This document shows, piece by piece, positions 1,960 to 56,539 of a DNA stretch of 64,000 nucleotides. Under the pieces are notes generated by a model that had not been told where the DNA came from, ran no database searches, and saw only the letters and a list, made by a program, of their open reading frames with translations. This DNA comes from Candidatus Versatilivorator sp. (GTDB lineage Bacteria > Acidobacteriota > Terriglobia > Versatilivoradales > Versatilivoraceae): contig CBDAOQ010000003.1 in assembly GCA_965198125.1 (NCBI GenBank), positions 3,407,953 through 3,471,952 of the forward strand. Reading direction: 5' to 3'. Within the stretch, counting starts at the first letter, position 1. Each line of letters begins with the position of its first letter. A program made the position numbers and the translations under genes.

Positions 1960-3651
1960 ATGATCCGACGCCTAACCATCAAGAATTTCAAGCGGTTTCC
2001 AGAGCACCGATTCGAGTTGGCTGATTCCGTCGTGCTTGCCGGTCCCAACAACTCGGGGAAGTCCACACTACTACAGGCCATCGCCACCTGGAAGCTGGGA
2101 CTCGACCGATGGATCGCCCAACGTAAGGGAAACAAGAAGAGCAGGGCGGTCAGGCGGTCAGGGGTCTCTATCACCCGCGCTGACTTCACCCCGGTCCCAC
2201 TCCGCGAGATGAACCTCCTGTGGGAAGATCGCCGCGTTTCGGGCGGATCGGGAGAACCTCGTTTAATCGAGATAATCGTTGAAGGACACAACGATGGGAA
2301 ACCTTGGGAATGTGGACTGGAGTTTCAATACGCCAATCCCGAATTAGTCTATGTGCGGCCGCGTAATGCGAAAAAGCTTGACCAGTCTGCCATGGTTGCC
2401 TTCCCTCCACAGGCTGCCGAGAACCTTGGCGTCGTCTATGTGCCGCCACTATCGGGTATCGAGCGCGATGAGCCTCGCCGCGACAGGGGCATGCAGGATT
2501 TGCTTGTCGGTCAAGGCCGTCCCGGCGAAATACTGCGCAATCTCCTTTGGGAAATTGAGAAAAACGGGGAGAAGGAGGAGTGGAAGGAATTAGGCGCACA
2601 TATTCGTGACCTGTTCGAACTTGAACTGCAGAGACCTTCCTATTCGCCGGCTCAACCCTACATCGTGTGCGAATACCTGGAACCGGGACACTCACGACAG
2701 CTTGATCTGTCCAATGTCGGCAGTGGAACCCTTCAAGTGCTTCTCCTATTGGCGTTTTTGTATGCGCGTCCGGCAACCGTAATCCTCCTTGATGAACCCG
2801 ACGCCCACCAGCACGTCATTCTGCAAAAGCAGGTTTATGACCTGATTCGCAAGGTCGCTCACGAGCGCCGCGGACAAATGATTGTCGCTACTCATTCCGA
2901 AGTGGTCCTCGACGCAACCGAGCCGACCCGAGTGCTCGGGTTTTTCGGTGCGGCCCCGCGACCTCTGGCCAGCCAGACTGAGCGCGACCGAGTGCGTGAA
3001 GCGCTCAAGCGTGTCACCACCACGGATCTCCTTCTGGGTCGGGTGGCAGAGGCGGTGCTATATATCGAGGGTGAGACGGACGAGAGAATCTTGGCTGAGT
3101 GGGCACGGAAACTCAATCATCCAGTGCAGGAAGTTCTCAAACAGGCCGTGGTGCACTGGCTTGGTGGGCGAAGCCTTCGCGAGGCAAAGGAACACTTCTT
3201 TGCCATGAGGGCGGCGTTCCCCAATTTGCGTGCGCTTTGCCTTCTTGATGGAGACAATCGTGACCAACCGGATACGGAGACAACAGTCGCGGGTCTGGTC
3301 GTCCTGCGATGGACGCGCTACGAGATTGAGAACTATCTCTTACAGCCGGGAGCCATAAAGCGATTCGTGGAATTGCCGCCGTTAATGGAGCCACAAGTCG
3401 ATGAGGCCTTTTGGAAACAGGTACCACCGGGCACTGATCTTTTCGGAAAACATGTCTCGTTGGTGCGGGTCAAGGCCAGCACCGAGTTTCTGGTTCCTCT
3501 ACTTGACGATGTCGGTAGAAATACTCCCAAAAAAGACCTGTACCTGCTGGCAAACCTGATGACTAAAGAGGAAATTCATCCGGAGGTGCATCAAAAGCTC
3601 GATCGCATCGCGGTGATACTTAAACCGACGCAAGGAGAATCGTTGCCTTGA
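1960..3651 (+). CDS. OLD-family-like ATP-dependent endonuclease: N-terminal ABC ATPase plus C-terminal TOPRIM/DUF4435-like domain
   Basis: Start at MIRRLTIKNF with RBS GAGGTGG upstream. Walker A GPNNSGKST and Walker B ILLDEPDAHQH. C-terminal YIEGETDERIL (EGxxD TOPRIM-like), LLDGDNRDQPD (DxD) and RYEIENYL. Lower GC than the flanks. Confidence 0.65.
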   Translation: MIRRLTIKNFKRFPEHRFELADSVVLAGPNNSGKSTLLQAIATWKLGLDRWIAQRKGNKKSRAVRRSGVSITRADFTPVPLREMNLLWEDRRVSGGSGEPRLIEIIVEGHNDGKPWECGLEFQYANPELVYVRPRNAKKLDQSAMVAFPPQAAENLGVVYVPPLSGIERDEPRRDRGMQDLLVGQGRPGEILRNLLWEIEKNGEKEEWKELGAHIRDLFELELQRPSYSPAQPYIVCEYLEPGHSRQLDLSNVGSGTLQVLLLLAFLYARPATVILLDEPDAHQHVILQKQVYDLIRKVAHERRGQMIVATHSEVVLDATEPTRVLGFFGAAPRPLASQTERDRVREALKRVTTTDLLLGRVAEAVLYIEGETDERILAEWARKLNHPVQEVLKQAVVHWLGGRSLREAKEHFFAMRAAFPNLRALCLLDGDNRDQPDTETTVAGLVVLRWTRYEIENYLLQPGAIKRFVELPPLMEPQVDEAFWKQVPPGTDLFGKHVSLVRVKASTEFLVPLLDDVGRNTPKKDLYLLANLMTKEEIHPEVHQKLDRIAVILKPTQGESLP

Positions 3652-4283
3652 AGCCTTGTACCGGATCGTCAACGCGTATACCAACGCTACGAAAATCCCC
3701 TGGATTCGCTCGACCCATTTGACAATCGATCGTAAGACGGTTGTGAAAAGTCTAGGGCTCTTTGTTGGCTGAACGCTCTGATAGCGACCGACAGATCGTG
3801 TTCGTCAGCGGTCCGCGAACAGTGGCGGAACCCACTAGTGACGTCGTCACCCCCACACCTACCTCAACTCGTCTCCGGCGAGCTTGCAAAGGAGGTTCGC
3901 CTATCGCTGGATACGATTCGAGGTTGGATTGGTATTCTGTGCTCTTTCCATCTAGGTTTTCCGGTCAGGCCCTGGTTGAAGGATTTGGGTTTACCTTTCT
4001 GTCGCAACTCCAGGGAAGGTCCCGACTCCGAGTTCTGGCCGGACTTGACGGAGGTTCGCCAACGCCCCTTGGGGTCTGGACGGGAACAAGATATAAGGTA
4101 CTGATTATTAAACGTTTAATCCTCAGGGCCCGCTAAGATATGATCGCAGTTTTCCGTTGAAACCCCACCGGGCTTATGTTAGCTTGAGCCTGCACCTACG
4201 CGGCCCCACGGATTCTCTCACTGCCGCAGCCACAGTCGAGTCTTCCGGAACAATCCAACTCGCACCTCCAGGACACGGACCCC

Positions 4284-5552
4284 ATGGAGAATGTCAAAAA
4301 GGACGTGTTGGACAATGGGCTCACGGTTCTCACCGAGCGCATGCCTCACGTCCGTTCCGTTTCCATGGGGGTCTGGGTGAAGACGGGCTCCCGCAGCGAA
4401 ACCCCTGAGTTGAACGGTGTGGCTCATTTCGTCGAGCACCTGCTGTTCAAGGGTACCCGGCGGCGCACGGCCGAAGAGATTGCCAAGGAGGTGGACTCCA
4501 TCGGCGGCCACCTGGATGCCTTTACGGGCAAGGAAACCGTCTGTTACAGCGCCAAAGTCCTGGATGACCACCTTCCCCTGGCCTTCGATATTCTGTCCGA
4601 TCTCGTGCTCAATCCCCGGTTCGATCCCGACGAGATGGAGCGGGAACGCTCGGTGGTTCTGGAGGAGATCAAGATGGAGGAGGACATTCCGGACGATCTG
4701 GTTTGCGAGATCTTCACTCAGAACTTCTGGAAGAATCAACCTCTGGGACGGCCGATCCTGGGAACCAGCCAGACAGTCAGCCGCCTGGACCGAGACAGGG
4801 TGGCCGATTTTTTCCGCGAGCACTACACTCCGGACCAACTGGTGATCTCGGCCGCGGGCCACCTGGACCACCGCAACATCCTGGACCTGGCCTTGCGGCA
4901 TTTCGGCCACCTGGAACGCCGGTCGAACGGACGAGCCCTGGCTCCGGCCAAACCTTGCAATCCCATCTCATTGCGCACCAAGAAAGAGCTGGAACAAGCC
5001 CACGTTTGCCTGGGTGTTCCCGGCTGCGCCCTCGCCGACCAAAACCGGTTCGCGTTCTACCTCTTGAGCACGATCCTGGGTGCCGGCATGAGTTCCCGGC
5101 TCTTTCAGAACATCAGGGAAAAACAGGGCTTGGCCTATGCCATCTTCTCGGGGTTGAGTTCATTCCGGGACACCGGCTGTCTGTTGGTCTATGCGGGAAC
5201 CTCTCTGAAAAACGTCGGAAGGGTGGTGAGTTCCATTGTGCGGGAGTTGCGTGATCTTAAAGAGCGTCAAGTGGGAACCGAGGAACTGCGGCGAGCCAAG
5301 GATCACATGAAGGGGAGCCTTTTGCTGAGCCTGGAATCCAGTTCCAGCCGCATGTCCAACCTGGCGCGGCAGGAACTCTGTTTCGGGGATTACAAACCGC
5401 TGCAGGAGACGATACTGGATATCGATCGAGTTTCCGCAGATGAAATTCAGGCCTTGGCCCATTCGGTTTTTGACACTCCTCAGGTGGCTCTCACCGTGCT
5501 GGGCAACCTGGATGGAGTCCGGTTTACCCGTGCCGACCTGGATTGCGGATGA
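4284..5552 (+). CDS. M16 family zinc peptidase (insulinase/pitrilysin-like)
   Basis: Inverted zinc motif HFVEHLLFKG (HxxEH) near the N-terminus; 422 aa; coding-like composition. Confidence 0.85.
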   Translation: MENVKKDVLDNGLTVLTERMPHVRSVSMGVWVKTGSRSETPELNGVAHFVEHLLFKGTRRRTAEEIAKEVDSIGGHLDAFTGKETVCYSAKVLDDHLPLAFDILSDLVLNPRFDPDEMERERSVVLEEIKMEEDIPDDLVCEIFTQNFWKNQPLGRPILGTSQTVSRLDRDRVADFFREHYTPDQLVISAAGHLDHRNILDLALRHFGHLERRSNGRALAPAKPCNPISLRTKKELEQAHVCLGVPGCALADQNRFAFYLLSTILGAGMSSRLFQNIREKQGLAYAIFSGLSSFRDTGCLLVYAGTSLKNVGRVVSSIVRELRDLKERQVGTEELRRAKDHMKGSLLLSLESSSSRMSNLARQELCFGDYKPLQETILDIDRVSADEIQALAHSVFDTPQVALTVLGNLDGVRFTRADLDCG

Positions 5553-14511: not shown

Positions 14512-14788
14512 CTGCCGGATCGCGGAGCGCTATTCAGATCGAGGGTTTTTCCTCCCGAGTCCGTCAAGGATCAGGTGACACTGAACCCGTTTGCCGTCTG
14601 AAGCTCAATGGCCACAAAAGGCACAAAAACACAAAAAGAACCATCGGATCGGCAAGACTCGAAATCAAGAAACTCGTTTTGTGACTTTTATGCTTTTTGT
14701 GGTGAATGTCGGAGCCTGTAGCACATCACCTTTGCCGCCTCAATGTCGTTCCCGATTGCGAACTTTGCAAAAGGCTCTGGAATATGAA

Positions 14789-14994
14789 CATGGATGCACA
14801 GGATGCACAGGATAAAACGGGACGAGATGACGCGGCACAGGAAGTGGACTCGCTCGATGATCGGGTACGTATTCCGATTGACCCATGAGCGTGGGAGCGG
14901 GTTTTGGGTAATCCATGTAGGAACATAGGCGATGGTTGAATTCAAGACGGTGCAACCGCCCGCCAATTAATCCTGTATATCCTGTCCATCCATG
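14789..14994. repeat. MITE-like unit with about 25-bp terminal inverted repeats (CATGGATGCACAGGATGCACAGGAT ... ATCCTGTATATCCTGTCCATCCATG), copy 1
   Basis: The two termini are reverse complements of each other. Related units occur at 21557-21811, 47106-47238, 47261-47408, 47439-47489 and 54439-54505. The internal segment CTCGATGATCGGGT...GATCCATGAGCKTGGGAGCGGGTTTTTGG is shared with the 21.6-kb copy. Confidence 0.7.
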
Positions 14995-15071
14995 TAAATA
15001 AACCAAATACTCATACTTGACTGTGAACCGGTTTCGCGCCATCCGGCGCGGGGCGTTGTTTCGGACAAGTT

Positions 15072-15117
15072 GGGCCCCCGCCCCCACGACGGGGCGGATC
15101 ATCCGAGAGTGAAACAA
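15072..15117. repeat. GC-rich hairpin (GGGCCCCCGCC..GGGGCGG) followed by conserved ATCATCCGAGAGTGAAACAA motif, copy 1
   Basis: Near-identical motifs at 21371-21416 and 21449-21490. Confidence 0.6.
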
Positions 15118-15173
15118 TCGGAAATCGACAATCCTTTCGTGACCTTGGTATCCCGTCGCGGTTAACCTCAACG

Positions 15174-15250
15174 CCTTAGTGGCCCTTCGTCGTTCTTCGT
15201 GGCCCTTCGTGGATAACTCTTTTTTCTTTTGTTTCGGACAAGTAGAGAGG
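15174..15250. repeat. 9-bp tandem CTTCGTGGN array ending in GGATAACTCTTTTTTC...GTTTCGGACAAGT (short copy of the about 280-bp arm repeat)
   Basis: CCTTAGTGGCCCTTCGTCGTTCTTCGTGGCCCTTCGTGGATAACTC; homologous to 21870-22170, 33964-34240 and 47556-47700. Confidence 0.65.
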
Positions 15251-18163: not shown

Positions 18164-19804
18164 ATGCTGGGCAGCCAGGTGATCGCCCAACTCTTGAAAC
18201 GGGAAGGAGTGGAGCAGGTGTTCTGCTTTCCACTGACTCCGATCCTCGACGCCTTGACCGAGGCCGGCATCCGGCTGATCGTGGCCCGTCAGGAACGGGT
18301 GGCGGGCAACATGGCGGACGGTTTCTCGCGAACCACTTGCGGGGACCGAATCGGGGTGGTGACAGTGCAGCAGGGTCCGGGAGCCGAGAACGCCTTCGCC
18401 GGGATCGCCCACGCCTATACCGATTCGAGCCCCATCCTCTTCCTTCCGGGTCATCCCGGGCGAAACCAGGTTGGGGTCCCACCCACCTTCGGCGCACTGG
18501 AGAACTACCGGGCCACCACCAAGTGGGCCGACCGGGTGCCGGCGGCAGCAGCCATCCCCGGACGGATGGCTCGGGCTTTTACCGCCTTGCGTTCGGGGCG
18601 CCCCGGACCGGTCCTGCTGGAGATTCCGGTGGACGTGGCCGAGGAGGAGTTTCCGGGTCCCCTGGAGTACCAGCCGGTGCCGAAAATAAGGACCGGTGGA
18701 GACCCCGCGGCTGTCAGGGAGGCCGTTCGGTTGCTGCTGGCCGCCAAGCGGCCGCTCATCTGGGCAGGGCAGGGGGTTTTCTATGCCAAGGCCTCCAGTG
18801 AGCTGGAGCAGGTGGCGGAGCAGTTGGCGGCGCCGGTGATGACCTCGCTCCAGGGTAAGAGCGCCTTCAACGAGACGCACCCCCTGGCCCTGGGGACGAC
18901 CGGATACAGCCAAACCGCCATGGTGGGCGAGCATCTGGCGGCCAGCGATGCCCTGTTGGTCGTCGGGGCCAGCCTGACCCGTTCCCTGTTCGCCCCCACC
19001 ATTCCCAACGACGGAAGGGTTCTGATTCACGCCACCCTGGACTGGAAGGATCTGAACAAGGGCTATCGGGCCGATGTGCCCATCCTGGGGGATGCCAAAC
19101 TGGTGCTGCAACAGGTGCTGGAGGAGATTGGCCGCCATTCGGGGAATGGGGAAAGGGAGGCTCGGCGCCAATCGGTCCAGGCCGGCATAGCGAGCCTACG
19201 GAAGGCTTGGCGGGCCCGCTGGGCTGGCAAGCTCCGATCCTCCCAGGTCCCCATCAACCCCTATCGAGTCATCGGGGAGCTGATGAAAGCGGTGGACCCG
19301 GCCTCAGCCATGGTCACCCACGATTCCGGCTCCCCCCGAGATCAAATCGCTCCATTTTATGAGGCGGTCACTCCGCGCGGTTACCTGGGGTGGGGAAATT
19401 CGACCCAATTGGGATTTTCCCTGGGCGCCGCCATGGGGGCCAAGCTGGCGGCTCCGGACAAGTTGGTGGTGACCTTCATGGGAGATGCGGCCTTTGGGAT
19501 GGTCGGCATGGATCTGGAGACCGCGGTGCGGGAACACATCCCCATCCTGATTCTTCTGGTAAACAATTCGGCCATGGGCGGCTACGAGCAGTACATCCCC
19601 AAGGCTGCCATTGAGGGTCGCGTTAAATTCCTGTCCGGGAACTACAGCCAGGTGGCTCGGGGGCTGGGGGCCTACGCCGAGCGGATAGACCGTCCGGAGG
19701 CGGTACAGGCCGCCTTGCAACGGGGAATAGCCGCAACTCGGGAGGGACAACCGGCCCTGCTGGAGTTCATCACCTGTGAGGAAAGGGATATCGCCAAGCG
19801 GTAG
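18164..19804 (+). CDS. thiamine pyrophosphate-dependent enzyme (acetolactate synthase / benzoylformate decarboxylase-like)
   Basis: Three-domain TPP enzyme organization with a C-terminal GDAAFGM-type TPP-binding motif. Strong RBS GGAAGGAGAAAAAATG at the chosen start. Confidence 0.8.
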   Translation: MLGSQVIAQLLKREGVEQVFCFPLTPILDALTEAGIRLIVARQERVAGNMADGFSRTTCGDRIGVVTVQQGPGAENAFAGIAHAYTDSSPILFLPGHPGRNQVGVPPTFGALENYRATTKWADRVPAAAAIPGRMARAFTALRSGRPGPVLLEIPVDVAEEEFPGPLEYQPVPKIRTGGDPAAVREAVRLLLAAKRPLIWAGQGVFYAKASSELEQVAEQLAAPVMTSLQGKSAFNETHPLALGTTGYSQTAMVGEHLAASDALLVVGASLTRSLFAPTIPNDGRVLIHATLDWKDLNKGYRADVPILGDAKLVLQQVLEEIGRHSGNGEREARRQSVQAGIASLRKAWRARWAGKLRSSQVPINPYRVIGELMKAVDPASAMVTHDSGSPRDQIAPFYEAVTPRGYLGWGNSTQLGFSLGAAMGAKLAAPDKLVVTFMGDAAFGMVGMDLETAVREHIPILILLVNNSAMGGYEQYIPKAAIEGRVKFLSGNYSQVARGLGAYAERIDRPEAVQAALQRGIAATREGQPALLEFITCEERDIAKR

Positions 19805-19906
19805 AAACCGGTGGGCTGAGATCGAACCTGCCGCTGGCGGCGACCTGCCGGACCTGCCCTCCCGATCGACGCCACGGGTCCGATCGGGCTTGCCGCCCTG
19901 CCCTGC

Positions 19907-20935
19907 CTACTCGCCACTTCCCAAACTATAGCTGACCACCGTATACAGGGCGTACATTGCCAGCATGGCCACTCCCTGAGAGCGGCTCAGCCGCTCTCTG
20001 CCCGGGAGGAGGCCGATCCTCAAGGTCAGCAGCAGCAGCAGCATGGTTGGGAAAAGGAGGGTAAAGAAGTGGGGATCGGCGATCAGTCCTCCGCGCGTGA
20101 CCGCCCCCGAAGCGCCGACCACGAACAGGACGTTGAGGATATTGGCGCCGATCACGTTGCCCAGCGCTAACTCCCCGTGACTCCGCAGGGCCGCTGTGAC
20201 GGCGATGAACAGCTCTGGCAGGGAAGTGCCGAAAGCCACCAGAGTTGCCGCGATCACGCTTTCCGGAACCTGCAGTCGGACGGCGCACTCGGTGACTGCC
20301 GGGAGGAGAATGCGGGCAGAGACGACCACCAGGGCAATGGCTCCCACCAACTTGGCGGCAATCACCCCGGTCGAGTCCGTTTCGCTCTCCTGTCCCTCTG
20401 ACGACGCCGGGTTTCTTTCCCGGGCCCAGCGGATCGATTGCCAGACATAACCGGCAAGGGCCAGCAGAAAGGCGACGGCCACGAATTGGGTGACTCGACC
20501 GCCGCCGGTGAGGGCATCCCCCGCCGATGGCCAGGGGATACAGGCCAGAACCAGCAGAATGACCGCGGCCAACTGGATGGCATTCTGCCGCATGACGATC
20601 TTCCGGTTGATCCTGGGCGGATCCAGGATACAGGCCAGTCCCAGAATCAGACCGGTGTTGCAGATGATGGAGCCGACTGCGTTTCCCAAAGCCAGACCCG
20701 ATTGGCCTCGGAAAGCGGCCAGAACCGAGACGGCCACCTCCGGCGTAGTGGTCCCCAGGCTCACAATGGTGGCGCCGATCACCACCTCGGGAATGTTCGA
20801 GCGTTGCGACAGGCTGATGGCTGCAGAGATCAGCCAGTCGGCCGCCTTTCCCAAAATGAGCAGGCTGCCCAGGATGACTCCTGCCAGCAGGCTCCAATGG
20901 ATCTCGGACAAAAGGGATTGAAAGGCTTGTTCCAA
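19907..20935 (-). CDS. calcium/sodium antiporter (CaCA/YrbG family)
   Basis: Two alpha-repeat regions (GNAVGSIICNTGLILG, GNVIGANILNVLFVVG) and about 10 TM segments; 342 aa. Confidence 0.8.
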   Translation of the reverse strand: MEQAFQSLLSEIHWSLLAGVILGSLLILGKAADWLISAAISLSQRSNIPEVVIGATIVSLGTTTPEVAVSVLAAFRGQSGLALGNAVGSIICNTGLILGLACILDPPRINRKIVMRQNAIQLAAVILLVLACIPWPSAGDALTGGGRVTQFVAVAFLLALAGYVWQSIRWARERNPASSEGQESETDSTGVIAAKLVGAIALVVVSARILLPAVTECAVRLQVPESVIAATLVAFGTSLPELFIAVTAALRSHGELALGNVIGANILNVLFVVGASGAVTRGGLIADPHFFTLLFPTMLLLLLTLRIGLLPGRERLSRSQGVAMLAMYALYTVVSYSLGSGE

Positions 20936-21122
20936 GGGGTCGAGCGCAGGTTGCAGGGTAGCGGCCGCTTGAGCTGCGAGTGGCTGATGGCGAGGACCGC
21001 TTTGGCGTTGGAGGGTCTCGCAGGCAGGATGCTATTCGTTTCTTTCCAGGATGGCAATCAAATCCCGGTAATTGCTATCGGGAGGGCCGCCCCATGAGAA
21101 CCGGGATTCAGGGGAGAAACCA

Positions 21123-21292
21123 GCGAGGCCGTGCCTCAGACCGACAAGCAAGGGAAAAGAGATATCCACGAAGTAACACGAAGGGACAAAAAAAGATATC
21201 CACGAAGGACCACGAAGGGGCACGAAGAACCACAAATGGACACAAATGGACACGAAGGAGCACGAAGAGACTGATTGATGAATGGTTAATTG
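21123..21292. repeat. conserved unit GCGAGGCCGTGCCTCAGACCGACAAGCAAGGGAAAAGAG followed by 9-bp CACGAAGGN tandem array and CTGATTGATGAATGGTTAATTG
   Basis: About 11 imperfect 9-mers at 21164-21268. The same unit plus a shorter array occurs at 54279-54367 and a truncated one at 54518-54562. Confidence 0.7.
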
Positions 21293-21370
21293 GGGGGGGT
21301 GTAAAAACCGATTTTGCCTAAAATCCGCAATCTACAATCCAAAACAGCCGTACGAGAAATTGGTTAGCCA

Positions 21371-21490
21371 CGCCCCCGCCCGGCATGACGGGGCGGCTCA
21401 TACGGGGTGAAACAGGGGTGTTTCAGAACGAGTGATTAGTGATTAGCCGGGCCCCCGCCGTGCCGGGCGGATCATTCGAGAGTGAAACAA
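21371..21490. repeat. two tandem copies of the GC hairpin + ATCATNCGAGAGTGAAACA motif (copies 2 and 3), separated by a GTGATTAGTGATTAG direct repeat
   Basis: CGCCCCCGCCCGGCATGACGGGGCGGCTCATACGGGGTGAAACAGG and GGGCCCCCGCCGTGCCGGGCGGATCATTCGAGAGTGAAACAA. The perfect palindrome GGGACATGTCCC lies at about 21511. Confidence 0.6.
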
Positions 21491-21556
21491 CGGACCCTTA
21501 TGGCTTTTTGGGAGTAGGGACATGTCCCGTTAAACCGGTTTGTTGTATTAGGGAAC

Positions 21557-21811
21557 ATCGATAGACAGGATAGACAGGATAAACAGGACGAGAAGCTGCT
21601 GCACAGGAAGGTGACTGGCTCGATGATCGGGTGTGGTTTGAAGTGATCCATGAGCTTGGGAGCGGGTTTTTGGAATCGGTATTAGGAGAAGGCGATGATG
21701 ATGGCCGTCTCTAAGGCAGGACTTGCCATTCAGTCTCACAAGCCCGCCAAGGTCTGCTTTCGGGAGAAGCCGGTTGGCGACAACACATCCTGTTTATCCT
21801 GTCCATCCATG
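21557..21811. repeat. MITE-like unit with ACAGGATA-repeat terminal inverted repeats, copy 2
   Basis: CATCGATAGACAGGATAGACAGGATAAACAGGAC ... ATCCTGTTTATCCTGTCCATCCATG; internal sequence homologous to copy 1. Confidence 0.7.
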
Positions 21812-21869
21812 TAAATCAGGGATCTGCTCATGCCCGACGCCGAGACGAAGGGCCGGGAACTTAATTTCG

Positions 21870-22170
21870 TGATCTTGGCGTCACTTCGTGCCCTTGGTGG
21901 ATAACTTTTTCCCCTTCGTGTCTTTCTTCTTGGCCCTTCACGGACCCCTTTCGACTATTTTCCAACCCCTTAGAGTCCCTTCGCGGATTAATCTCTTGCC
22001 CCCTGTACAGATACTTTGGCGCCCTTCGTGGAAATCTATTCCCCCTTCCCGACCTTTGGCGGAACCCTCTTGAGCCTTCTCCAACCCCTTAGTGGCCCTT
22101 CGTGGTCCTTCGTGCCCCTTCGTGGATATCTTTTTTTGTCCTTTGCGGATAACGCTCAAGTGTTTCAGGC
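21870..22170. repeat. about 280-bp arm repeat with CTTCGTG 9-mers, ending GGATAACGCTCAAGTGTTTCAGGCAAGC, abutting the stop of the minus-strand gene at 22175
   Basis: About 85% identical to 33964-34240; partial copies at 47556-47700 and 15174-15250. It is the inverted-orientation counterpart of the CACGAAG array at 21164-21268. Confidence 0.7.
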
Positions 22171-22174
22171 AAGC

Positions 22175-22813
22175 TCAATCAGTAGAATCCGATGCGCCTG
22201 CAGTTGATGAGTCCCCGTCGGAGCCTCGACCGGCGCTCTCGCCTTCGAGGTCCGGCTCCAGATGCACCGCATAGCTCTGGGCTACCGGAATGCAGAAGGT
22301 GTCGGCGTCATCGCAGGCGAAGTAGCGAACAGTAAGATGCAGAGGCCGGCTGTGGCCGGTGACGGCGATGTCCAGCAGGAACTCCCGGGGATCCTTGTCG
22401 GCGGGTTGCTCGACCTTGGGGCCGGTCCCGCGGTTGGGGGTGACCCGGACTCCCTCGGGAGTCTCCAGCCTGAATTCCAGTGGCTTGACCCGGTTGTTCC
22501 AGTGGACGGCGTAAAGTGGGTCCAGATGAAACCCGATATAGAGCTTGCCCTCTCCCCGGGTCAGGAAGGGTGGGTCCACCGCGGCCCGAAGCGTGGCGTA
22601 GAAGGGGATGGGTCTTTTCTGCTTGCCCGGCACGATTTTCAGCGGGACCATTGCGGAGGGCCGCCGGATCCCGGGAACGATGCCGGAGGGAATGTTTGGG
22701 TTGGGCCGGCCGAGCTTCAGCTCCGTCTGCAGCTCGGCCGCCTGAGCCCGTTCCATTGTCATGGGCGTCAAGGCAAGCAGGCCCAATCCAAACCATGCGG
22801 TTGCTCTCATCAC
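22175..22813 (-). CDS. secreted hypothetical protein
   Basis: Signal peptide MMRATAWFGLGLLALTPMTMERAQA. ATGA start/stop overlap with the upstream MATE gene suggests an operon. Confidence 0.5.
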   Translation of the reverse strand: MMRATAWFGLGLLALTPMTMERAQAAELQTELKLGRPNPNIPSGIVPGIRRPSAMVPLKIVPGKQKRPIPFYATLRAAVDPPFLTRGEGKLYIGFHLDPLYAVHWNNRVKPLEFRLETPEGVRVTPNRGTGPKVEQPADKDPREFLLDIAVTGHSRPLHLTVRYFACDDADTFCIPVAQSYAVHLEPDLEGESAGRGSDGDSSTAGASDSTD

Positions 22814-33963: not shown

Positions 33964-34240
33964 GTCTTCGTTTCGTGTCCCTTGGTGGATTTCTTTTCCC
34001 CCTAGTGTCTTTCTTCGTGGCCCTTTACGGATCCCTTTCGAGTCTTTTCCAACCCCTTGGAGTCCCTTGGCGGATTCATCTTTTTGTCCCCTTGACAGAT
34101 CCTTTGGCGCCCTTGATGGAAATCTTTTCCCTTCCCGACCATTGGCGGATCCCTTTGAGTCTTCTCCAACCCCTTAGTGGCCCTTCGTCGTCCTTCGTGG
34201 CCCTTCGTGGATAACTCTTTTTTCCGTTGTTTCAGGCACG
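33964..34240. repeat. about 280-bp arm repeat (copy 3), abutting the stop of the minus-strand gene at 34266
   Basis: CCCTTGGTGGATTTCTTTTCC...CCTTAGTGGCCCTTCGTCGTCCTTCGTGGCCCTTCGTGGATAACTCTTTTTTCCGTTGTTTCAGGCACG. Confidence 0.7.
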
Positions 34241-35943: not shown

Positions 35944-36354
35944 TTGGAGCCAAAGAAAGGAGAGGGAACTCCCATGAGCATCATGGTCACGGAGGTTTAT
36001 CAGGCGCTTGTCGATGCGGGAGCGTCAGAGGAAAAAGCCCGAGCGGCGGCAGAAGCGATTCCCGACATGTCGGATCTAGCGAAAAAAAATGACGTAGCCG
36101 AACTTCGGTCCGAGTTGAAGCAGGATATCGCTGATCTTCGGGCCGAGCTGAATCAGGACATCGCCGAACTTCGGTCCGAGCTGAAGCAGGACATTGCCGA
36201 ACTTCGGTCCGAGCTGAAGCAGGACATTGCCGAACTTCGGTCCGAGCTGAAGCAGGACATTGTTGGGCTGAAGGCCGATCTGTACAAGCACATGTGGCTC
36301 ATGCAGGGGGCAACCATCCTTGCCATCGTCGGAATCTTGAAACTCCTGCCTTGA
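35944..36354 (+). CDS. DUF1640-like coiled-coil protein with C-terminal TM helix and expanded 11-aa tandem repeat
   Basis: VYQALVDAGASEEKARAAAEAI...; (DIAELRSELKQ)x4; C-terminal LMQGATILAIVGILKLLP. Confidence 0.55.
   Translation: MEPKKGEGTPMSIMVTEVYQALVDAGASEEKARAAAEAIPDMSDLAKKNDVAELRSELKQDIADLRAELNQDIAELRSELKQDIAELRSELKQDIAELRSELKQDIVGLKADLYKHMWLMQGATILAIVGILKLLP
36105..36270 (+). repeat. 33-bp in-frame tandem repeat (GCCGAACTTCGGTCCGAGCTGAAGCAGGACATT), about 5 copies with 3 perfect
   Basis: Direct inspection. The repeat encodes AELRSELKQDI units inside the DUF1640-like CDS. Confidence 0.85.
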
Positions 36355-46937: not shown

Positions 46938-47105
46938 GCTGGCCTCCCTCCCCGTGAGCTGAGGAACATAGATGAAAAACAGGGCAAAGTATAAAGATTC
47001 CTTTTCCGCTTGTCACCGTCCCGGAAGGTTCGGGCAGGAGGCGAAGGCTGATGCGGTGGGGGGGAACCGGCCCGGCGTCGAGGATTGATTTTTTTTCACA
47101 AATAA

Positions 47106-47489
47106 CATCGATGCACAGGATAAGCAGGAGGTCAGGTTGCTGGAGGGGAAAGCGGCTCGCGCGATACGACAGGCTCGATGCCCGCTATTGGGGCAAGGCG
47201 GTCGATGACAGTAATCCTGTGCATCCTGTGCATCCATGTTAATTAAAAAAATAAACAAACATGGATTAACAGGATAGACAGGATAACCGGGACGAGACGC
47301 TGCTGAAGGGAATGCTGACTCCAGTGATGATCGGTTGCGGGATTGCGGATGCTCAGGATTGCAAGCGAGCCGTTTCCTGAAAAATCCTGTGCATCCTGTG
47401 CATCGATGTTAATTATTCATTCCAATGTTGCACAGGATTACGGGGCTCCGGACTGGCAAAGGCAATCCTGTATGTGGTGTGCATCGATG
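47106..47489. repeat. three adjacent MITE-like units with ACAGGAT-type terminal inverted repeats (47106-47238, 47261-47408, 47439-47489)
   Basis: CATCGATGCACAGGATAAGCAGGAG...ATCCTGTGCATCCTGTGCATCCATG; CATGGATTAACAGGATAGACAGGATAAC...ATCCTGTGCATCCTGTGCATCGATG; TTGCACAGGAT...GGCAATCCTGTATGTGGTGTGCATCGATG. Confidence 0.65.
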
Positions 47490-47555
47490 CCAATAATCCC
47501 CATAAGTCAGTGCGCCGATCGACTGAAACCCCGCGGGTCAGGGACCTCCTCGTCC

Positions 47556-47700
47556 TTCCCAAACTTTGGCAGACCCCCCTTGCGCTTCCTCCAACCCCTT
47601 AGTGGCCCTTGGTCATTCTTCGTGTCCCTTCGTGGATAACTCTTTTTCCTTTCGTCGATCTATTTTTGGCCTTGGCGGATAACGCTCACGTGTCTCAGCG
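47556..47700. repeat. arm repeat partial copy ending GGATAACGCTCACGTGTCTCAGCGG, abutting the stop of the minus-strand spermidine synthase gene
   Basis: CCTCCAACCCCTTAGTGGCCCTTGGTCATTCTTCGTGTCCCTTCGTGGATAACTCTTTTTCC. Confidence 0.65.
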
Positions 47701-47704
47701 GATC

Positions 47705-49354
47705 TCAATTCCTCCAGGACTGCCGGTGGTACTGGAGAATGGTGGGCCGAAACTTGGTGTTGATTTCGATGTGAGCGTCATCGAGCCAGCGCTTGCCGAA
47801 GGCGGTGGCGTTGGACACCAGGGCTGCGGTGAGATAGCCGGTAGGGACCCCGATGGACTTCAGTCCTTCCAGCCTGGCCTTCATGGCTGTTTCACTGAGG
47901 CCGTCCAGCCAGGCCAGGTGCCATCCCCACTCCCCAAAGCTGGGGACGTTCTGGCGGTAGGGCAGGGCGCGGAAGCCGGCGGACCGCAGCGTTTTCCCAA
48001 TGCACAGAAACATCTCCCTGGAGTGGTAGGGCGAAGTGGATTGCACCGCCACCAGGCCGGTGGGACCGAGCTGGCGGGCCAGCCTGCGATAGAAATCCAG
48101 GGAATAGAGCTTGGCGGTGCCCACCGATCGCGGATCGGGAAAGTCGATGACCACCAGATCGTAGGGGCCCCGCAAGCTTTGGACGAACAGGTCGGCATCC
48201 AGGTTGAAGACCCGGACCCTGGCCTGGGGGTAAAGGGTGTCGCTCAGGAAGGAGGAGGCCAGCTTGCTGGGTCGGGAGATGGTCTGAGCTTCCCCGTCGG
48301 AGACGCCCTCCGCCTGCCGCAGGGTGACACGTCCGTCCAGCAGGGCTCCCCGGTTGAGTCGAACCAGGTCGGGATGGGTGGCGGCCAGATCGGTCATGGC
48401 GGGATCGATGTCCACCAGGTCCACTCGCCGCACCTCATCGTATTTCAGCACTTCCCGGACGGCCAGGCCGTCGCCTCCCCCGAGAATCAGGACTCTGGAG
48501 CGGGAGGAAGCCACCGAAAAGGGAACGTGGACCAGCATCTCGTGGTAGATCCGCTCATCCTGGGAATTGAACTGAAGTTGGCCGTTGATGAAGAGGCTGA
48601 GCCGGTCGTTCCTGCGGGTCATGACGATGTGCTGGTACCTGGAGCTGTGGCTGTAGATGATGGGGTCGCCGTAGGTTCTCTGTTCCAGCGAAACTCGCCA
48701 ATCCTCCGACAGCACCAGCAGGCAGCCCAGGATTGCCATTCCGGCGCAGGAGAGCAGCAGAAGCTTCCTGAAGTGTCGCAGCAGGGGACGGAAATAGGCC
48801 AGTCCCAGCAAGGCCAGCAGGAGGTTGGCGCATCCCAGGGCCACGGCGATCTGGTTGATGGAGAGGTTGGCGAAGAGGACGAAGGTGAACAGCAGGGCAC
48901 CCGCCAGCGAACCCACGTAATCCATGCTCAGGATCTCGGAGAGGTTGGTCTTGAGGCTGGCGGAATACTCGCGGTTGATGCGGATCAGCAGGGGGATTTC
49001 GAGCCCGATGAGGATGCCGATCCCCAGGGAGAATCCCCACAGCAGCAGCATGTAGCTGGAGGAATAGACGTAGGCCAGGTAGATGGCCAGGGCGCTGACT
49101 CCTCCCGTCAGCCCCAGCAGGATCTCGACCAGCAGGAACTTGTCGACCAGATCGCCGCTGATGTTCTTCTGCAGGGTGGCCCCCAGGCCCATGGCGAACA
49201 TCATCAACCCGATGACCACGAAGATCTGCTCGTGGGAGGACCCCATCAGGTTGTTGCCCAGAGCCCCCAGGGTGTACTCGTAGGCAATCCCGCAAGCTCC
49301 CATGACGAACATGGACGCCGCCAGCACCTTTCGGGCATGTCCGAATCGATTCAT
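47705..49354 (-). CDS. speE: membrane-anchored polyamine aminopropyltransferase (spermidine synthase-like) with N-terminal multi-TM domain
   Basis: About 7 N-terminal TM helices, then the spermidine synthase core VLILGGGDGLAVREVLKY...VDLVDIDP...YDLVVIDFPDP. Confidence 0.8.
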   Translation of the reverse strand: MNRFGHARKVLAASMFVMGACGIAYEYTLGALGNNLMGSSHEQIFVVIGLMMFAMGLGATLQKNISGDLVDKFLLVEILLGLTGGVSALAIYLAYVYSSSYMLLLWGFSLGIGILIGLEIPLLIRINREYSASLKTNLSEILSMDYVGSLAGALLFTFVLFANLSINQIAVALGCANLLLALLGLAYFRPLLRHFRKLLLLSCAGMAILGCLLVLSEDWRVSLEQRTYGDPIIYSHSSRYQHIVMTRRNDRLSLFINGQLQFNSQDERIYHEMLVHVPFSVASSRSRVLILGGGDGLAVREVLKYDEVRRVDLVDIDPAMTDLAATHPDLVRLNRGALLDGRVTLRQAEGVSDGEAQTISRPSKLASSFLSDTLYPQARVRVFNLDADLFVQSLRGPYDLVVIDFPDPRSVGTAKLYSLDFYRRLARQLGPTGLVAVQSTSPYHSREMFLCIGKTLRSAGFRALPYRQNVPSFGEWGWHLAWLDGLSETAMKARLEGLKSIGVPTGYLTAALVSNATAFGKRWLDDAHIEINTKFRPTILQYHRQSWRN

Positions 49355-54144: not shown

Positions 54145-54278
54145 TGCGAAACCTCCCTGAGCAACTATCCAAAGCACATTTGCAACGGCGCCATTATGGC
54201 AGTAATGGCCGCGATTATCAATGCCGGTGGGAATGAGCGGCCGGAAGCCTTCGAACTCCAAGGGATTCCTGTTACAGT

Positions 54279-54562
54279 CTGGCGAGGCCGTGCCTCAGAC
54301 CGATAAGCCAGGGAAAAAAGATATCCACGAAGGGAGACGAAGAGACTGATTGATGAATGGTTGATTGCCGATCGATGTCTCCGGAAGGACCCTGCGCTTG
54401 CCGCTTGACCCTTGGAAGATCATGGATGGATGAAATGGAACATGGATGAACAGGATGGACAGGACAATGGAGACGGAAAACCATCCGGTTCATCCTGTCT
54501 ATCGATGTAAATCAAAGATCTGGCGAGGCCGTGCCTCAGACCGACAAGCAGGGAGGGGGAAA
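54279..54562. repeat. repeat locus 5: conserved unit CTGGCGAGGCCGTGCCTCAGACCGAYAAGC (x2, direct) flanking a short CACGAAG array and a MITE-like unit (54439-54505)
   Basis: 54279-54367 matches 21121-21292. 54439-54463 (CATGGATGAACAGGATGGACAGGAC) and 54488-54505 (TCATCCTGTCTATCGATG) are inverted. 54518-54562 repeats the unit. Confidence 0.65.
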
Positions 54563-54706
54563 AGAACCACAAATTCACACCAACGGACTCCAATGATGTC
54601 ATAGAACCGGCCACTCCCATTCAAGCTGGGGACGCTTGAAATCAAGGATCAATCCGACTCTCAAAAAACTATTGAATCAGTCTGCTATGTTTGTTATAAA
54701 GTATAT

Positions 54707-56539
54707 ATGGACAGTTCACACGCCAATTCGACCACGCTGCGCACCATCCGCGCCAACCTTGATCTCACCCAGGAGCAGCTCGCCGAGCGGCTCGGTGTCT
54801 CTTTCGCCACCGTCAATCGCTGGGAAGGCGGATTGGTAACGCCCCAAAAGGCAGCTCGGGAGGCCATCGCCGCGCTGGCTGCCGAAGCCGGAGTCGACGC
54901 CCAGGAATCCGTTGCGGAACCCACCGAAGCGGCGGCGCGCGTGACCCGCCGGCGGTCCCGCCGGCGCCGGACGGCTGCTCCTTCCACCAAACCCATGGAG
55001 CAGATGCTGTGGGACGCGGCCTGCTCCATCCGCGGGGAGAAAGACGCGCCCAAGTTCAAGGACTACCTGTTGCCGCTTCTTTTCCTCAAACGCCTTTCGG
55101 ACGTCTTCGACGACGAGATCGATCGCCTGGCCGAGGAATTTGGAGACCACGAGGTCGCGCAAGAGATCGCGGAGAATGACCACGATCTGCTGCGCTTCTA
55201 CCTGCCGCCGGAAGCCCGCTGGGGAGTCATCAGCGGACGCGAAACTCACCAGTGGCCCCTCGACGACCACGGGCGAAGCACGCGGCCGCACGACATCGGC
55301 GAGCATCTGACCCGGGCGGTGCGGGTGGTCGTGCGGCAGAATCCCTCGCTTTCGGGCGTCATTGACCTCGTCGATTTCGCCTCCGAGCGCAACGGCGAGC
55401 GCGACCTCAACCCGGCCAAGCTCGCCGACGTGGTCGAGACCTTCTCCGATTCCCGATACCGGCTCGGCCTGGCCGACGTGCAGCCCGACTTCCTGGGACG
55501 CGCCTACGAGTACCTGCTCCGCAAATTTGCCGAAGGTTCCGGCCAGAGCGCGGGCGAGTTCTTCACCCCCACCGAGGTCGGCTTCCTCATGGCCCACCTC
55601 ATGCGCCCCAGGCCCGGCGAGGACTGCCACGACTATGCCTGCGGCTCGGCCGGTCTGCTGGTCAAGCTCGAACTGGTCGCGCGCGAACTCGACCCCACCA
55701 GCCGCGTGCCGCTCAAGCTCTGCGGCCAGGAACTGCAGGCCGAAAGCTACGCCGTCGCCCACATGAACGCCGTCATCCACGACATGGAGGTGGAAATCGC
55801 CCGCGGCGACACCATGATCAACCCCAAGTTCAAGACCCCATCGGGCCAAATCGCCGACCACGACATCGTGGTCGCCAATCCCATGTGGAACCAGCCCTTC
55901 AGCCCGGACCTCTTCGCCAATGACCCCTTCGACCGCTTCCGCACCCGGGGCGGCGTCACCACCGGCAAAGGCGACTGGGCCTGGCTCCAGCACACCCTGG
56001 CCTGCCTCAACCAGCGCGGGCGGGCGGCGGTGGTGCTCGACACCGGCGCAATGACCCGCGGCTCCGGCAGCAAGCATGAGGACCGGGAGCGCAACATCCG
56101 CAAGTGGTTCGTCGAGCGCGACCTCATCGACGGCGTCATCCTGCTGCCGGACAACCTCTTCTACAACACCAGCGCCGCCGGCGTCATCGTGGTGCTGTCC
56201 AAGCGCAAACCGGCCGCGCGGAAGGACAGGATCGTGCTCCTCAACGCCAGCCGGCGCGTGCGCAAGGGCCGCCCCAAGAACTACATCCCGGAGGAGGACA
56301 TCCGTCCCCTGGCGGCGGCCTTTGCGAAAGGCGAGCCGTTGCAGGGCGAGGTCGCCGTCATCACGCGCGAGCAGGCGGAACAGGCGGACTACAACCTCAG
56401 CCCGAGCCGCTGGGTGGGGCAGGCCGAGGCCGTCGCTCAGCGACCGATTAGGGAGATCATTGCCGAAATGCAGCGCCTCGATGATGAGGCCCGAGAGGTC
56501 GATGCGCGCCTGGCGGAAATGTTAGCACGACTGCAATAG
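54707..56539 (+). CDS. hsdM: Type I restriction-modification N6-adenine DNA methyltransferase subunit M with N-terminal HTH (XRE-like) domain
   Basis: N-terminus [21 protein letters not shown] is an HTH. HsdM N-terminal domain. AdoMet site FFTPTEV. Catalytic NPMWNQPF region; 610 aa. Confidence 0.85.

Follow-up and report, generated by a model that had tools for sequence, protein, structure and literature searches.

A dispersed intergenic repeat of Candidatus Versatilivorator is probably the expanded terminal arm of a small cassette encoding a PD-(D/E)XK nuclease

Several intergenic spacers in a 64,000-nucleotide stretch of the genome of Candidatus Versatilivorator sp. (GenBank assembly GCA_965198125.1, contig CBDAOQ010000003.1, positions 3,407,953 to 3,471,952; the whole stretch is referred to here as the window) hold a repeat of up to about 280 bp that ends in GGATAAC close to a gene. 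Our analysis indicated that this repeat is probably the expanded terminal inverted arm of a small cassette that carries a gene for a PD-(D/E)XK nuclease of about 125 residues. Alignment showed that the arms in the window are homologous to, and arranged like, the arrays that surround intact PDDEXK_3 genes, that the GGATAAC end of the repeat is the terminus of the cassette, and that related genomes differ in the presence of arms and of whole cassettes. An intact cassette contains a PDDEXK_3 gene, inverted runs of tandem boxes of about 10 bp on both sides of it, and an outer GGATAA(C) terminus on each arm. One probable dead cassette, made of an arm, a decayed nuclease gene and a second arm, lies in the window, where all remaining copies are solo or partial arms.

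The copies were found by blastn, using positions 21860 to 22185 as the query against the whole window. The repeat that an earlier note on this DNA had described proved to be real. The two long copies (21885-22145 and 33972-34229) were 86.7% identical over 263 nt (E=7.5e-83), and partial copies were recovered at 47554-47709 (73% identity over 156 nt) and at 15169-15231 (87.5% identity over 64 nt). The search also returned two partial copies on the reverse strand that were absent from the earlier note, at 21181-21239 (84.7% over 59 nt) and at 54314-54342 (93% over 29 nt). All four forward copies shared one end, in which GGATAAC(G/T)CT is followed by a T-rich run or by CAAGT/CACGT and then by GTTTCAGG, GTTTCGG or GTCTCAG. 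The gene ends named in the earlier note were located as described, with the stop codons at 22175, 34266 and 47705 lying 1 to 30 nt beyond the element and the GTG start of tyrS lying about 20 nt past GTTTCGGACAAG.

The arm is not palindromic, and one of its strands is 66 to 69% pyrimidine. Its self-similarity peaks at lags of 10, 20-21, 42-43 and 117-119 bp, and its structure is hierarchical, from 10-bp CCTTCGTGG boxes through a unit of about 118 bp to the terminal GGATAAC box. The box of the Versatilivoraceae lineage is (T)GATCCACGAAGG. The outer end was common to all copies, and the inner starts were discrete, giving forms of about 260, 215, 95 and 70 nt; where arms were arrayed in tandem, the periods were about 115, 182 and 220 bp. 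Stop codons occur in all three frames within the cassette tail, which in the Versatilivoraceae consists of a T-run and GTTTCAG, followed by RCAAG and a hairpin module. A coding repeat was ruled out by indels of 1 and 2 nt between the copies. An array of clustered regularly interspaced short palindromic repeats was also ruled out, since the 115- to 182-bp units are conserved throughout and have no unique spacers.

A 28-nt pattern from the core of the arm was scanned over a collection of species-representative genomes, and at least 90 stretches matched. The matches listed were all from metagenome-assembled genomes (MAGs) of Candidatus Versatilivorator or the Versatilivoraceae (Acidobacteriota, Terriglobia), or from genomes labelled only as Terriglobia or Acidobacteria bacterium. 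The window's own genome was not among them, and its nearest relatives were about 88% identical to it in the DNA of genes. The pattern alone occurred at least 20 to 35 times per genome. Ninety loci (given L numbers here) were fetched, which together with the window made a sample of about 0.78 Mb. In all the fetched DNA, successive CACGAAG boxes were spaced exactly 10 bp apart in 294 pairs, and the next commonest spacing, 85 bp, was found 33 times.

One of the fetched loci, L068, contains an intact open reading frame (ORF) of 125 residues (4558-4935) that matched PDDEXK_3 in Pfam (E=2.7e-40) and the NCBIfam model TIGR04256, "GxxExxY protein." Six reverse-oriented modules precede the gene and seven forward modules follow it, and the window arm aligned with these arrays over 123 to 250 nt with 70.8 to 84.6% identity. 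The orthologous gene, with PMT_2/TPR and cyclase genes as its neighbors, was found in the same inverted arrangement in 10 further Versatilivoraceae loci (L109-L118), giving 11 in all, and a profile of the 92-nt terminal module matched both sides of the gene in each of them. At the orthologous locus the arrays reach the stop codons of the neighboring genes, as where TAG is followed at once by GAGTTATCCACGAAGG. Contigs encoding an identical protein had 3 to 9 units per side, so that the locus behaves like a variable-number tandem repeat (VNTR). Between two species groups (L109-L112 and L113-L118) the nuclease gene is flipped relative to the PMT_2/TPR and cyclase genes, which is what recombination between the arms would produce. 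Relatives with 66 to 73% identity were found in two settings among defense genes, between hsdR and hsdM and between a methylase gene and an SNF2 helicase gene; they are flanked by the same inverted boxes, ending in ...CCCTTCGTGGATAACTCTTT.

The arms were strongly polar with respect to decayed copies of the nuclease gene: 45 modules had a remnant within 600 nt of their head, and only 4 had one within that distance of their tail. Opposite-strand module pairs sharing one spacer were seen at seven candidate loci, five of which (the window, L061, L068, L079 and L082) were upheld by the gene map. The order in these pairs was always reverse and then forward, with the tails outward, while the four forward-then-reverse pairs were more than 4 kb apart. 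In the window pair, positions 21181-21239 and 22086-22144 are 85% complementary over 59 nt. The remnant enclosed by this pair translates as ...EKLLHRKVTGSMIGCGLK (...TGSMIGCGLK), VIHELGSGFLESV and EKAMMMAVSKAGLAIQSHKPAKV. Inner ACAGGAT repeats, inverted with respect to each other, bound it at 21554-21585 and 21787-21815. The nearest relatives of the remnant in databases are ORFs of 39 to 77 residues, two of which (P0129 and P0130) have a precomputed match to PF13366. Because the remnant stands between a reverse arm and a forward arm, the insertion at 21067-22249 is probably a dead cassette. The gene toward whose stop codon its right arm is directed (22175-22813) is an ORF without a Pfam match. 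The arms at 15131 and 47554 also have remnants on their inner side, and another remnant lies near 54262 (Table 1). A tblastn search of the window found no intact PDDEXK_3 ORF; only frameshifted remnants are present.

Table 1. Arms, gene remnants and associated modules in the window
Feature	Position	Strand	Description
Whole insertion (dead cassette)	21067..22249	.	1.18 kb; arm, hairpin modules, gene remnant, arm
Left arm of the dead cassette	21103..21300	-	CACGAAGG boxes on the + strand; preceded by outer module GCGAGGCCGTGCCTCAGACCGACAAGC
Gene remnant of the dead cassette	21554..21840	+	Decayed, frameshifted PDDEXK_3 (GxxExxY) gene between both arms
Right arm of the dead cassette	21870..22173	+	About 2.5 copies of the ~118-bp higher-order unit made of 10-bp CCTTCGTGG boxes; terminal box GGATATC/GGATAACGCT and GTTTCAGGCAAG directed outward, to stop codon 22175
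Solo arm	33964..34240	+	Fills the spacer in which a GHL10-like gene (stop 33931) and an M20 peptidase gene (stop 34266) converge
Decayed cassette remnants	47089..47470	.	Two or three, ACAGGAT type; head side of the arm at 47554
Partial arm	47554..47709	+	Terminal box toward stop codon 47705 of a spermidine-synthase-like gene
Gene remnant	14779-15000	+	Decayed, ACAGGAT-type PDDEXK_3; head side of the arm at 15131
G+C-rich hairpin module	15056-15120	+	Head side of the arm at 15131
Minimal arm	15131..15243	+	Three boxes, GGATAACTC, T-run, GTTTCGGACAAG; tyrS GTG start (15264) about 20 nt downstream
Short reverse-orientation arm	54262-54367	-	Upstream of HsdM-like methylase gene
Mini remnant	54400-54520	.	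Inverted ACAGGAT repeats; upstream of HsdM-like methylase gene
Second outer module	within 54262..54590	.	Upstream of HsdM-like methylase gene

The HsdM-like N6 methylase gene of Table 1 (54707-56539) encodes an N-terminal helix-turn-helix domain, and the decayed cassette remnant just upstream of it occupies the position in which intact PDDEXK_3 genes sit elsewhere (between hsdR and hsdM in L127-L134). A 1,294-residue ORF (58245-62129) lies downstream of the methylase gene.

The protein encoded by the intact cassettes was also analyzed. Residues E30, D70, E80 and K82, which make up the PD-(D/E)XK catalytic set, were invariant in 73 sequences from two clades. An AlphaFold2 model built on the 73-sequence alignment had a mean predicted local distance difference test score (pLDDT) of 94.9 and a predicted template modeling score (pTM) of 0.88; an earlier model from 15 close sequences had a pLDDT of 49.7. 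The best match of the model among solved structures was SSO0001 (4ic1; E=1.9e-4, TM score 0.57), a Cas4 nuclease of the RecB/Cas4 type, followed by lambda exonuclease, RecE and LHK-Exo. The nuclease had no sequence relative in the PDB and no match in PADLOC. The function of PDDEXK_3 was listed as "Unknown" in a survey of 2012 (PMC3424549), and no description of the cassette design was found in the literature searched by genus name, family names and architecture.

The same design was found in other phyla. The PDDEXK_3 family comprises 17,334 clusters at 50% identity (E<=1e-3). Relatives with about 46 to 49% identity were checked at the DNA level in one Nitrospirae, one Deltaproteobacteria and one SAR202 MAG, in which they lie among unrelated housekeeping genes, between yebC and ruvC, between GH3 and GATase genes, and between an alanine-racemase-like gene and the isocitrate dehydrogenase gene. 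These cassettes are bounded by ATTWATCCGCAGATTACGCAGATT ... AATCTGCGTAATCTGCGGATAAAT, that is, by different boxes with the same GGATAA terminus. In seven of eight gene-bearing contexts the flanking inverted repeats scored z=4.6 to 24, with 0 to 1 of 300 shuffles as good; in the eighth, the right repeat lies inside a called ORF and was therefore missed by the scoring, but it is visible by eye. Diverse representatives of the family carry N- or C-terminal read-through peptides such as HEGHEG, TKDTKVHEG, HERHEIHER, HGFHGLHGF, PQITQITQI and AKYAKHAKK, or SAKSAKSAD at the C terminus, and such clade-specific tandem tripeptides are what translated box arrays would give. The Nitrospirae cassette (L137, 801-1223) lies so close to ruvC that the ATG of that gene is 8 nt past the right terminus, and its ORF reads through the right arm to end in ...SVQSAKSADII.

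The presence or absence of the element was followed in related genomes. The 1.18 kb of the dead cassette in the window correspond to 34 to 35 bp in the orthologous spacers of two related species (L038 and L025), and these species have repeats and insertion sequences (ISs) in other spacers that are short in the window. The last 20 or so codons of the gene with stop codon 22175 (window 22175-22249) are unlike those of the L038 and L025 orthologues; insertion of the repeat cluster replaced the C terminus and stop codon of the gene. The spacer between 33931 and 34266 has a counterpart of about 100 bp without the element in the metagenome contig L091, where the peptidase is 85% identical; L091 was the only close relative from the metagenome scan, and an exact-protein look-up of the M20 peptidase gave no match. 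In L009 a 125-nt unit (3268-3394) stands where L027 has a stop-to-start operon spacer of 14 nt, and a possible imperfect CG(G)AGG duplication flanks the unit. In the remaining filled and empty pairs, either the spacer sequence was replaced or the ends were ambiguous between hairpin modules. Composites of a remnant and an arm also recurred as units at non-orthologous sites: one of 711 bp in L018 was 88% identical, and the composite at 14779-15232 recurred as one unit in L077 (80% over 458 nt).

The G+C-rich hairpin module, RCAAG-YCSGGCCCCCGCCC...GGGCGGATCATYCGAGAGTGAAACAA, in which TTGTTTCAG and GTGAAACAA can pair, alternates with arms at many loci, including window positions 15056-15120 and 21370-21490. 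As the T-run stands before this hairpin, neither strand is terminator-like. A third short module, GCGAGGCCGTGCCTCAGACCGA(C/T)AAGC, has a 5-bp stem and adjoins the outer end of reverse-oriented arms (window 21123-21144, 54282-54303 and 54523-54544).

It had been proposed in the earlier note that the repeat consistently abuts gene ends. Placement was analyzed with a rough codon-usage gene caller and the 92-nt terminal-module profile, which gave 174 matches. Of 88 terminal modules from the 90 related loci and the window, 68 had their outer end closer to a gene than their inner end (binomial p=3e-7), with medians of 89.5 and 474 nt, of which the latter is inflated because the profile spans only the terminal 92 nt of the element. 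The outer end faced a stop codon in 54 of the 88 modules and lay within 36 nt of it in 31 of these; in several cases the stop codon is the TCA inside GTTTCAG. The other 34 modules faced a gene start, usually 70 to 1,200 nt away, so that the proximity to gene ends is a strong tendency but not a rule.

This fit to gene ends would follow if the cassette inserted into very short spacers and its tail supplied stop codons in all three frames; since the fixed outer terminus marks the boundary of the insertion, the repeat sits against gene ends. The close fit would thus reflect an insertion boundary and not a function for the neighboring gene. In the mechanism that we propose, the cassette is, or formerly was, mobile and inserts itself into short spacers between genes, in many cases directly at a stop codon. 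The boxes may be binding or recognition sites of the cassette's own nuclease, because the box sequence changes with the protein clade. In the Versatilivoraceae the arms would have grown into arrays of 118-bp units by slippage or unequal recombination, and the gene would have been lost from most copies, so that dead cassettes and solo arms remain, those of the window among them.

A number of observations weigh against the view that the repeat is a cassette arm. The fetched loci were selected by a pattern inside the arm, and counts from them therefore come from a biased sample. A single intact gene was present in the 90 fetched loci and the window, and the remnants beside the window arms belong to the ACAGGAT-box clade and not to the clade of the gene that carries CACGAAGG arms. 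The tail of T-run, GTTTCAG, RCAAG and hairpin is not part of the cassettes outside the Versatilivoraceae. No target-site duplication or target motif was consistent across the filled and empty pairs compared, and many of the indels fall between repeated G+C-rich hairpin modules, a sign that turnover is mainly due to recombination and not to transposition. Identical proteins (P0022, P0028, P0066, P0089 and P0314) were each found at one locus only in all contigs, so that there is no sign of recent jumps of gene-bearing cassettes to multiple loci. Recent jumping of autonomous copies was rejected for the same reason and because the two long arms in the window are 87% identical and not near-identical. 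The earlier suggestion of a mobile element with an insertion-site preference thus survived in part: the repeat is the end of an inverted-repeat-bounded cassette, but a site preference did not emerge.

The same indels could be expected of a generic mosaic intergenic repeat of the repetitive extragenic palindrome (REP)/bacterial interspersed mosaic element (BIME), mycobacterial interspersed repetitive unit (MIRU) or minisatellite kind, which spreads by recombination and slippage and meets PDDEXK_3 genes in shared permissive spacers. The modular and nested structure with a common end, the tandem arrays and the strain-level variation in copy number fit such a repeat, as does the gathering of an IS, a miniature inverted-repeat transposable element (MITE) and a group II intron in the same spacers. 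We nevertheless consider it unlikely. The strict polarity of 45 versus 4, the constant inversion around the gene at the 11 Versatilivoraceae loci, the occurrence of the same boxes around related genes in tight operons free of other repeats, and the analogous box-plus-GGATAA design in other phyla are not explained by chance co-residence.

The repeat might serve the host genes as a boundary element, either a terminator or insulator or a promoter or UP element, as the earlier note had suggested. A terminator or insulator would keep transcription from entering the neighboring gene at its 3' end, for instance if the C-rich, unstructured pyrimidine strand loaded Rho. The terminal end lies near stop codons, and the pyrimidine strand, with a C/G ratio of about 1.7, forms no stable structure. 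Among 40 co-directional cases the sense strand was the purine-rich one in 30 (p=0.002), as expected if the opposite orientation were polar, although this bias is equally explained by selection against polar insertions. Neither strand folded better than shuffled sequence (z=-0.55 and -0.47), and consensus scans found terminator-like and sigma-70-like sites in the arm only at the level of chance. The absence of a stable hairpin before the T-run, together with these scans and folds, spoke against an intrinsic terminator. The elements occupied every type of spacer (26 convergent, 25+11 co-directional and 21 divergent), and array length varied freely between strains. The element is absent at the orthologous sites of relatives, so that the flanking genes do not need it. 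The suggestion was therefore not borne out, and we regard a boundary function as quite improbable. A structured RNA or tRNA-derived repeat was likewise rejected, since the Rfam search with the arm was negative both at the gathering threshold and at E<=1, as was the scan for tRNA.

The boxes could also act in cis on the nuclease gene or on the upstream mRNA, as operators, as Shine-Dalgarno-like GAAGGG repeats or as a purine-rich 3' untranslated region, with the downstream inverted copy as a by-product. Boxes do stand directly before the start codon in several contexts, the orientation bias is toward purine-sense, and a group II intron lies in the purine-sense strand, which implies that this strand is transcribed. 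However, the mirrored downstream copy ends in the same GGATAA in distant clades, which is a signature of element ends and not of a promoter or operator, solo arms persist without any gene, and no RNA structure was predicted. A cis-regulatory role thus appears very improbable.

It is hardly credible that the arm consists of clustered DnaA boxes, or of arrayed sites to which some other host DNA-binding protein binds for titration or nucleoid organization: GTTATCCACG matches the DnaA box consensus, TTATCCACA, at 8 of 9 positions and the boxes are phased at 10 bp, but conserved TTATNCACA 9-mers were not seen, the TTAT part is the least conserved and varies freely (GGATAAC, GGATCAC, GGATTCC, GGATTTC and GGATAGC all occur), other clades have unrelated boxes, and copies of a core pattern present at least 20 to 35 times per genome are dispensable at orthologous sites. 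Single-strand transposition of the IS200/IS605 or REP-associated tyrosine transposase (RAYT) type was rejected because the repeat showed no switch in orientation between the chromosome halves of three complete chromosomes. No RAYT-like ORF was found in the 0.78 Mb of fetched DNA, although this was a weak test. Nor is the arm a MITE of the resident IS5-like element, whose ends (GAGCCTTTTGCAAAATTCG) differ from it; this IS was inserted into the arm and is not its parent.

As an element bounded by inverted repeats with gene-less derivatives, the arm cassette belongs with the known selfish DNA of that design. Like MITEs and solo terminal inverted repeats of ISs, the derivatives are dispersed in spacers and are present or absent between relatives. 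Unlike them, the cassette has a single gene between its arms, for a 125-residue PD-(D/E)XK nuclease rather than a transposase of the DDE, HUH or serine type; its arms, built of tandem 10-bp boxes, can reach hundreds of base pairs; no target-site duplication is clear; and many copies consist of one arm alone. In the foldback transposons of Drosophila and other eukaryotes, long, variable inverted arms of hierarchically repeated short tandem sub-repeats enclose a center that is short or absent. The likeness to these eukaryotic elements is one of architecture only, without any relationship in sequence or protein.

Among prokaryotic repeats, REP/BIME elements with their RAYT are also intergenic mosaics of short modules that are enriched after gene 3' ends and serve as IS targets, and the arms too have G+C-rich hairpins interleaved with them. 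The arm differs from REP/BIME elements in being made of direct repeats and non-palindromic (fold z of about -0.5), in having a 68% pyrimidine strand, and in being associated with a PD-(D/E)XK gene. The MIRU/VNTR loci of mycobacteria share its intergenic tandem direct repeats of 50 to 120 bp, strain-level copy number, overlap with stop and start codons and orientation with the genes, but MIRUs do not flank a nuclease gene as inverted arms. As a very small nuclease gene between conserved genes, such as yebC and ruvC in L137, the cassette resembles free-standing homing endonuclease genes, among them that of the PD-(D/E)XK enzyme I-Ssp6803I. Such homing genes have no inverted terminal arms; a cassette clade is found at many unrelated sites and not at one cognate site; and the best structural match of the modeled nuclease is Cas4/lambda-exonuclease-like and not a known homing enzyme.

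A wider reading, which we offer only tentatively, is that the PDDEXK_3/GxxExxY cassettes form an unrecognized class of prokaryotic mobile elements. Members would be about 0.5 kb long, would have a minimal Cas4/RecB-like PD-(D/E)XK nuclease as their only gene and inverted arms of clade-specific tandem 9- to 10-bp boxes ending in GGATAA, and would insert between genes in many phyla; the arrays and solo arms of the Versatilivoraceae would be their non-autonomous, minisatellite-like offspring. The occurrence of PDDEXK_3 genes in four phyla, between unrelated genes and within their own box arrays, suggests a concrete role for the family, that of a nuclease acting on its own boxes in a selfish cassette. 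For annotation, the cassettes would account for a common class of odd intergenic repeats and for the spurious peptides (HEGHEG, PQITQITQI) that gene callers attach to these genes. The arrays are hypervariable loci usable as strain markers and are landing pads for an IS and a group II intron. For the genes that flank it in the window, the repeat is most likely neutral baggage and not a regulator.

The group II intron was found inside a CACGAAGG box of the arm at two loci of one genome (L055 1322-3322 and L002 ~3340-5335), with the junctions ...TTATCCACGAAGGGGCA / GTGCG...CTCTAC / CGAAGAACG.... It was identified by the Rfam models group-II-D1D4-4 and Intron_gpII and by a 452-residue RVT_1+GIIM ORF. 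Its copies, 99.2% identical to each other, both occupy the purine-sense strand, and their position inside the arm box indicates that the repeat serves as the homing site of the intron.

An IS of about 1.49 kb is present in the genome OZ242296 in three copies that are 99.8 to 100% identical (L038 1789-3282, L071 6341-7836 and L081 5534-7020). It encodes a 391-residue DDE_Tnp_1+DUF772 transposase and has the GAGCCTTTTGCAAAATTCG inverted terminal repeats mentioned above. Two of the three copies share one insertion point in the T-rich arm tail, and the copy in L038 is flanked by a 4-bp AGGA duplication. True MITEs, 230 to 260 bp long and with the inverted terminal repeats of the IS5-like element, occur in the same genomes as the arms, in L003 (416-677), L053 (2191-2453), L069 (2997-3257) and L089 (1124-1363), and a fragment of one lies at window positions 14600-14705. 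Inverted tandem boxes of the CACAAAAGG type lie within them, and clean empty sites were seen in L039, L057, L064 and L088. A second, different IS, with a 581-residue DDE_Tnp_1 transposase, adjoins a reverse-oriented arm at 1620-3590 of L025, where the corresponding spacer of the window (19804-19912) is only 108 bp.

Elsewhere in the window, positions 36058-36321 contain a 33-bp tandem repeat in perfect phase, with six overlapping copies, inside an ORF (35944-36354). The 11-residue repeat that it encodes (roughly DIAELRSELKQ) probably makes the product a coiled-coil protein.

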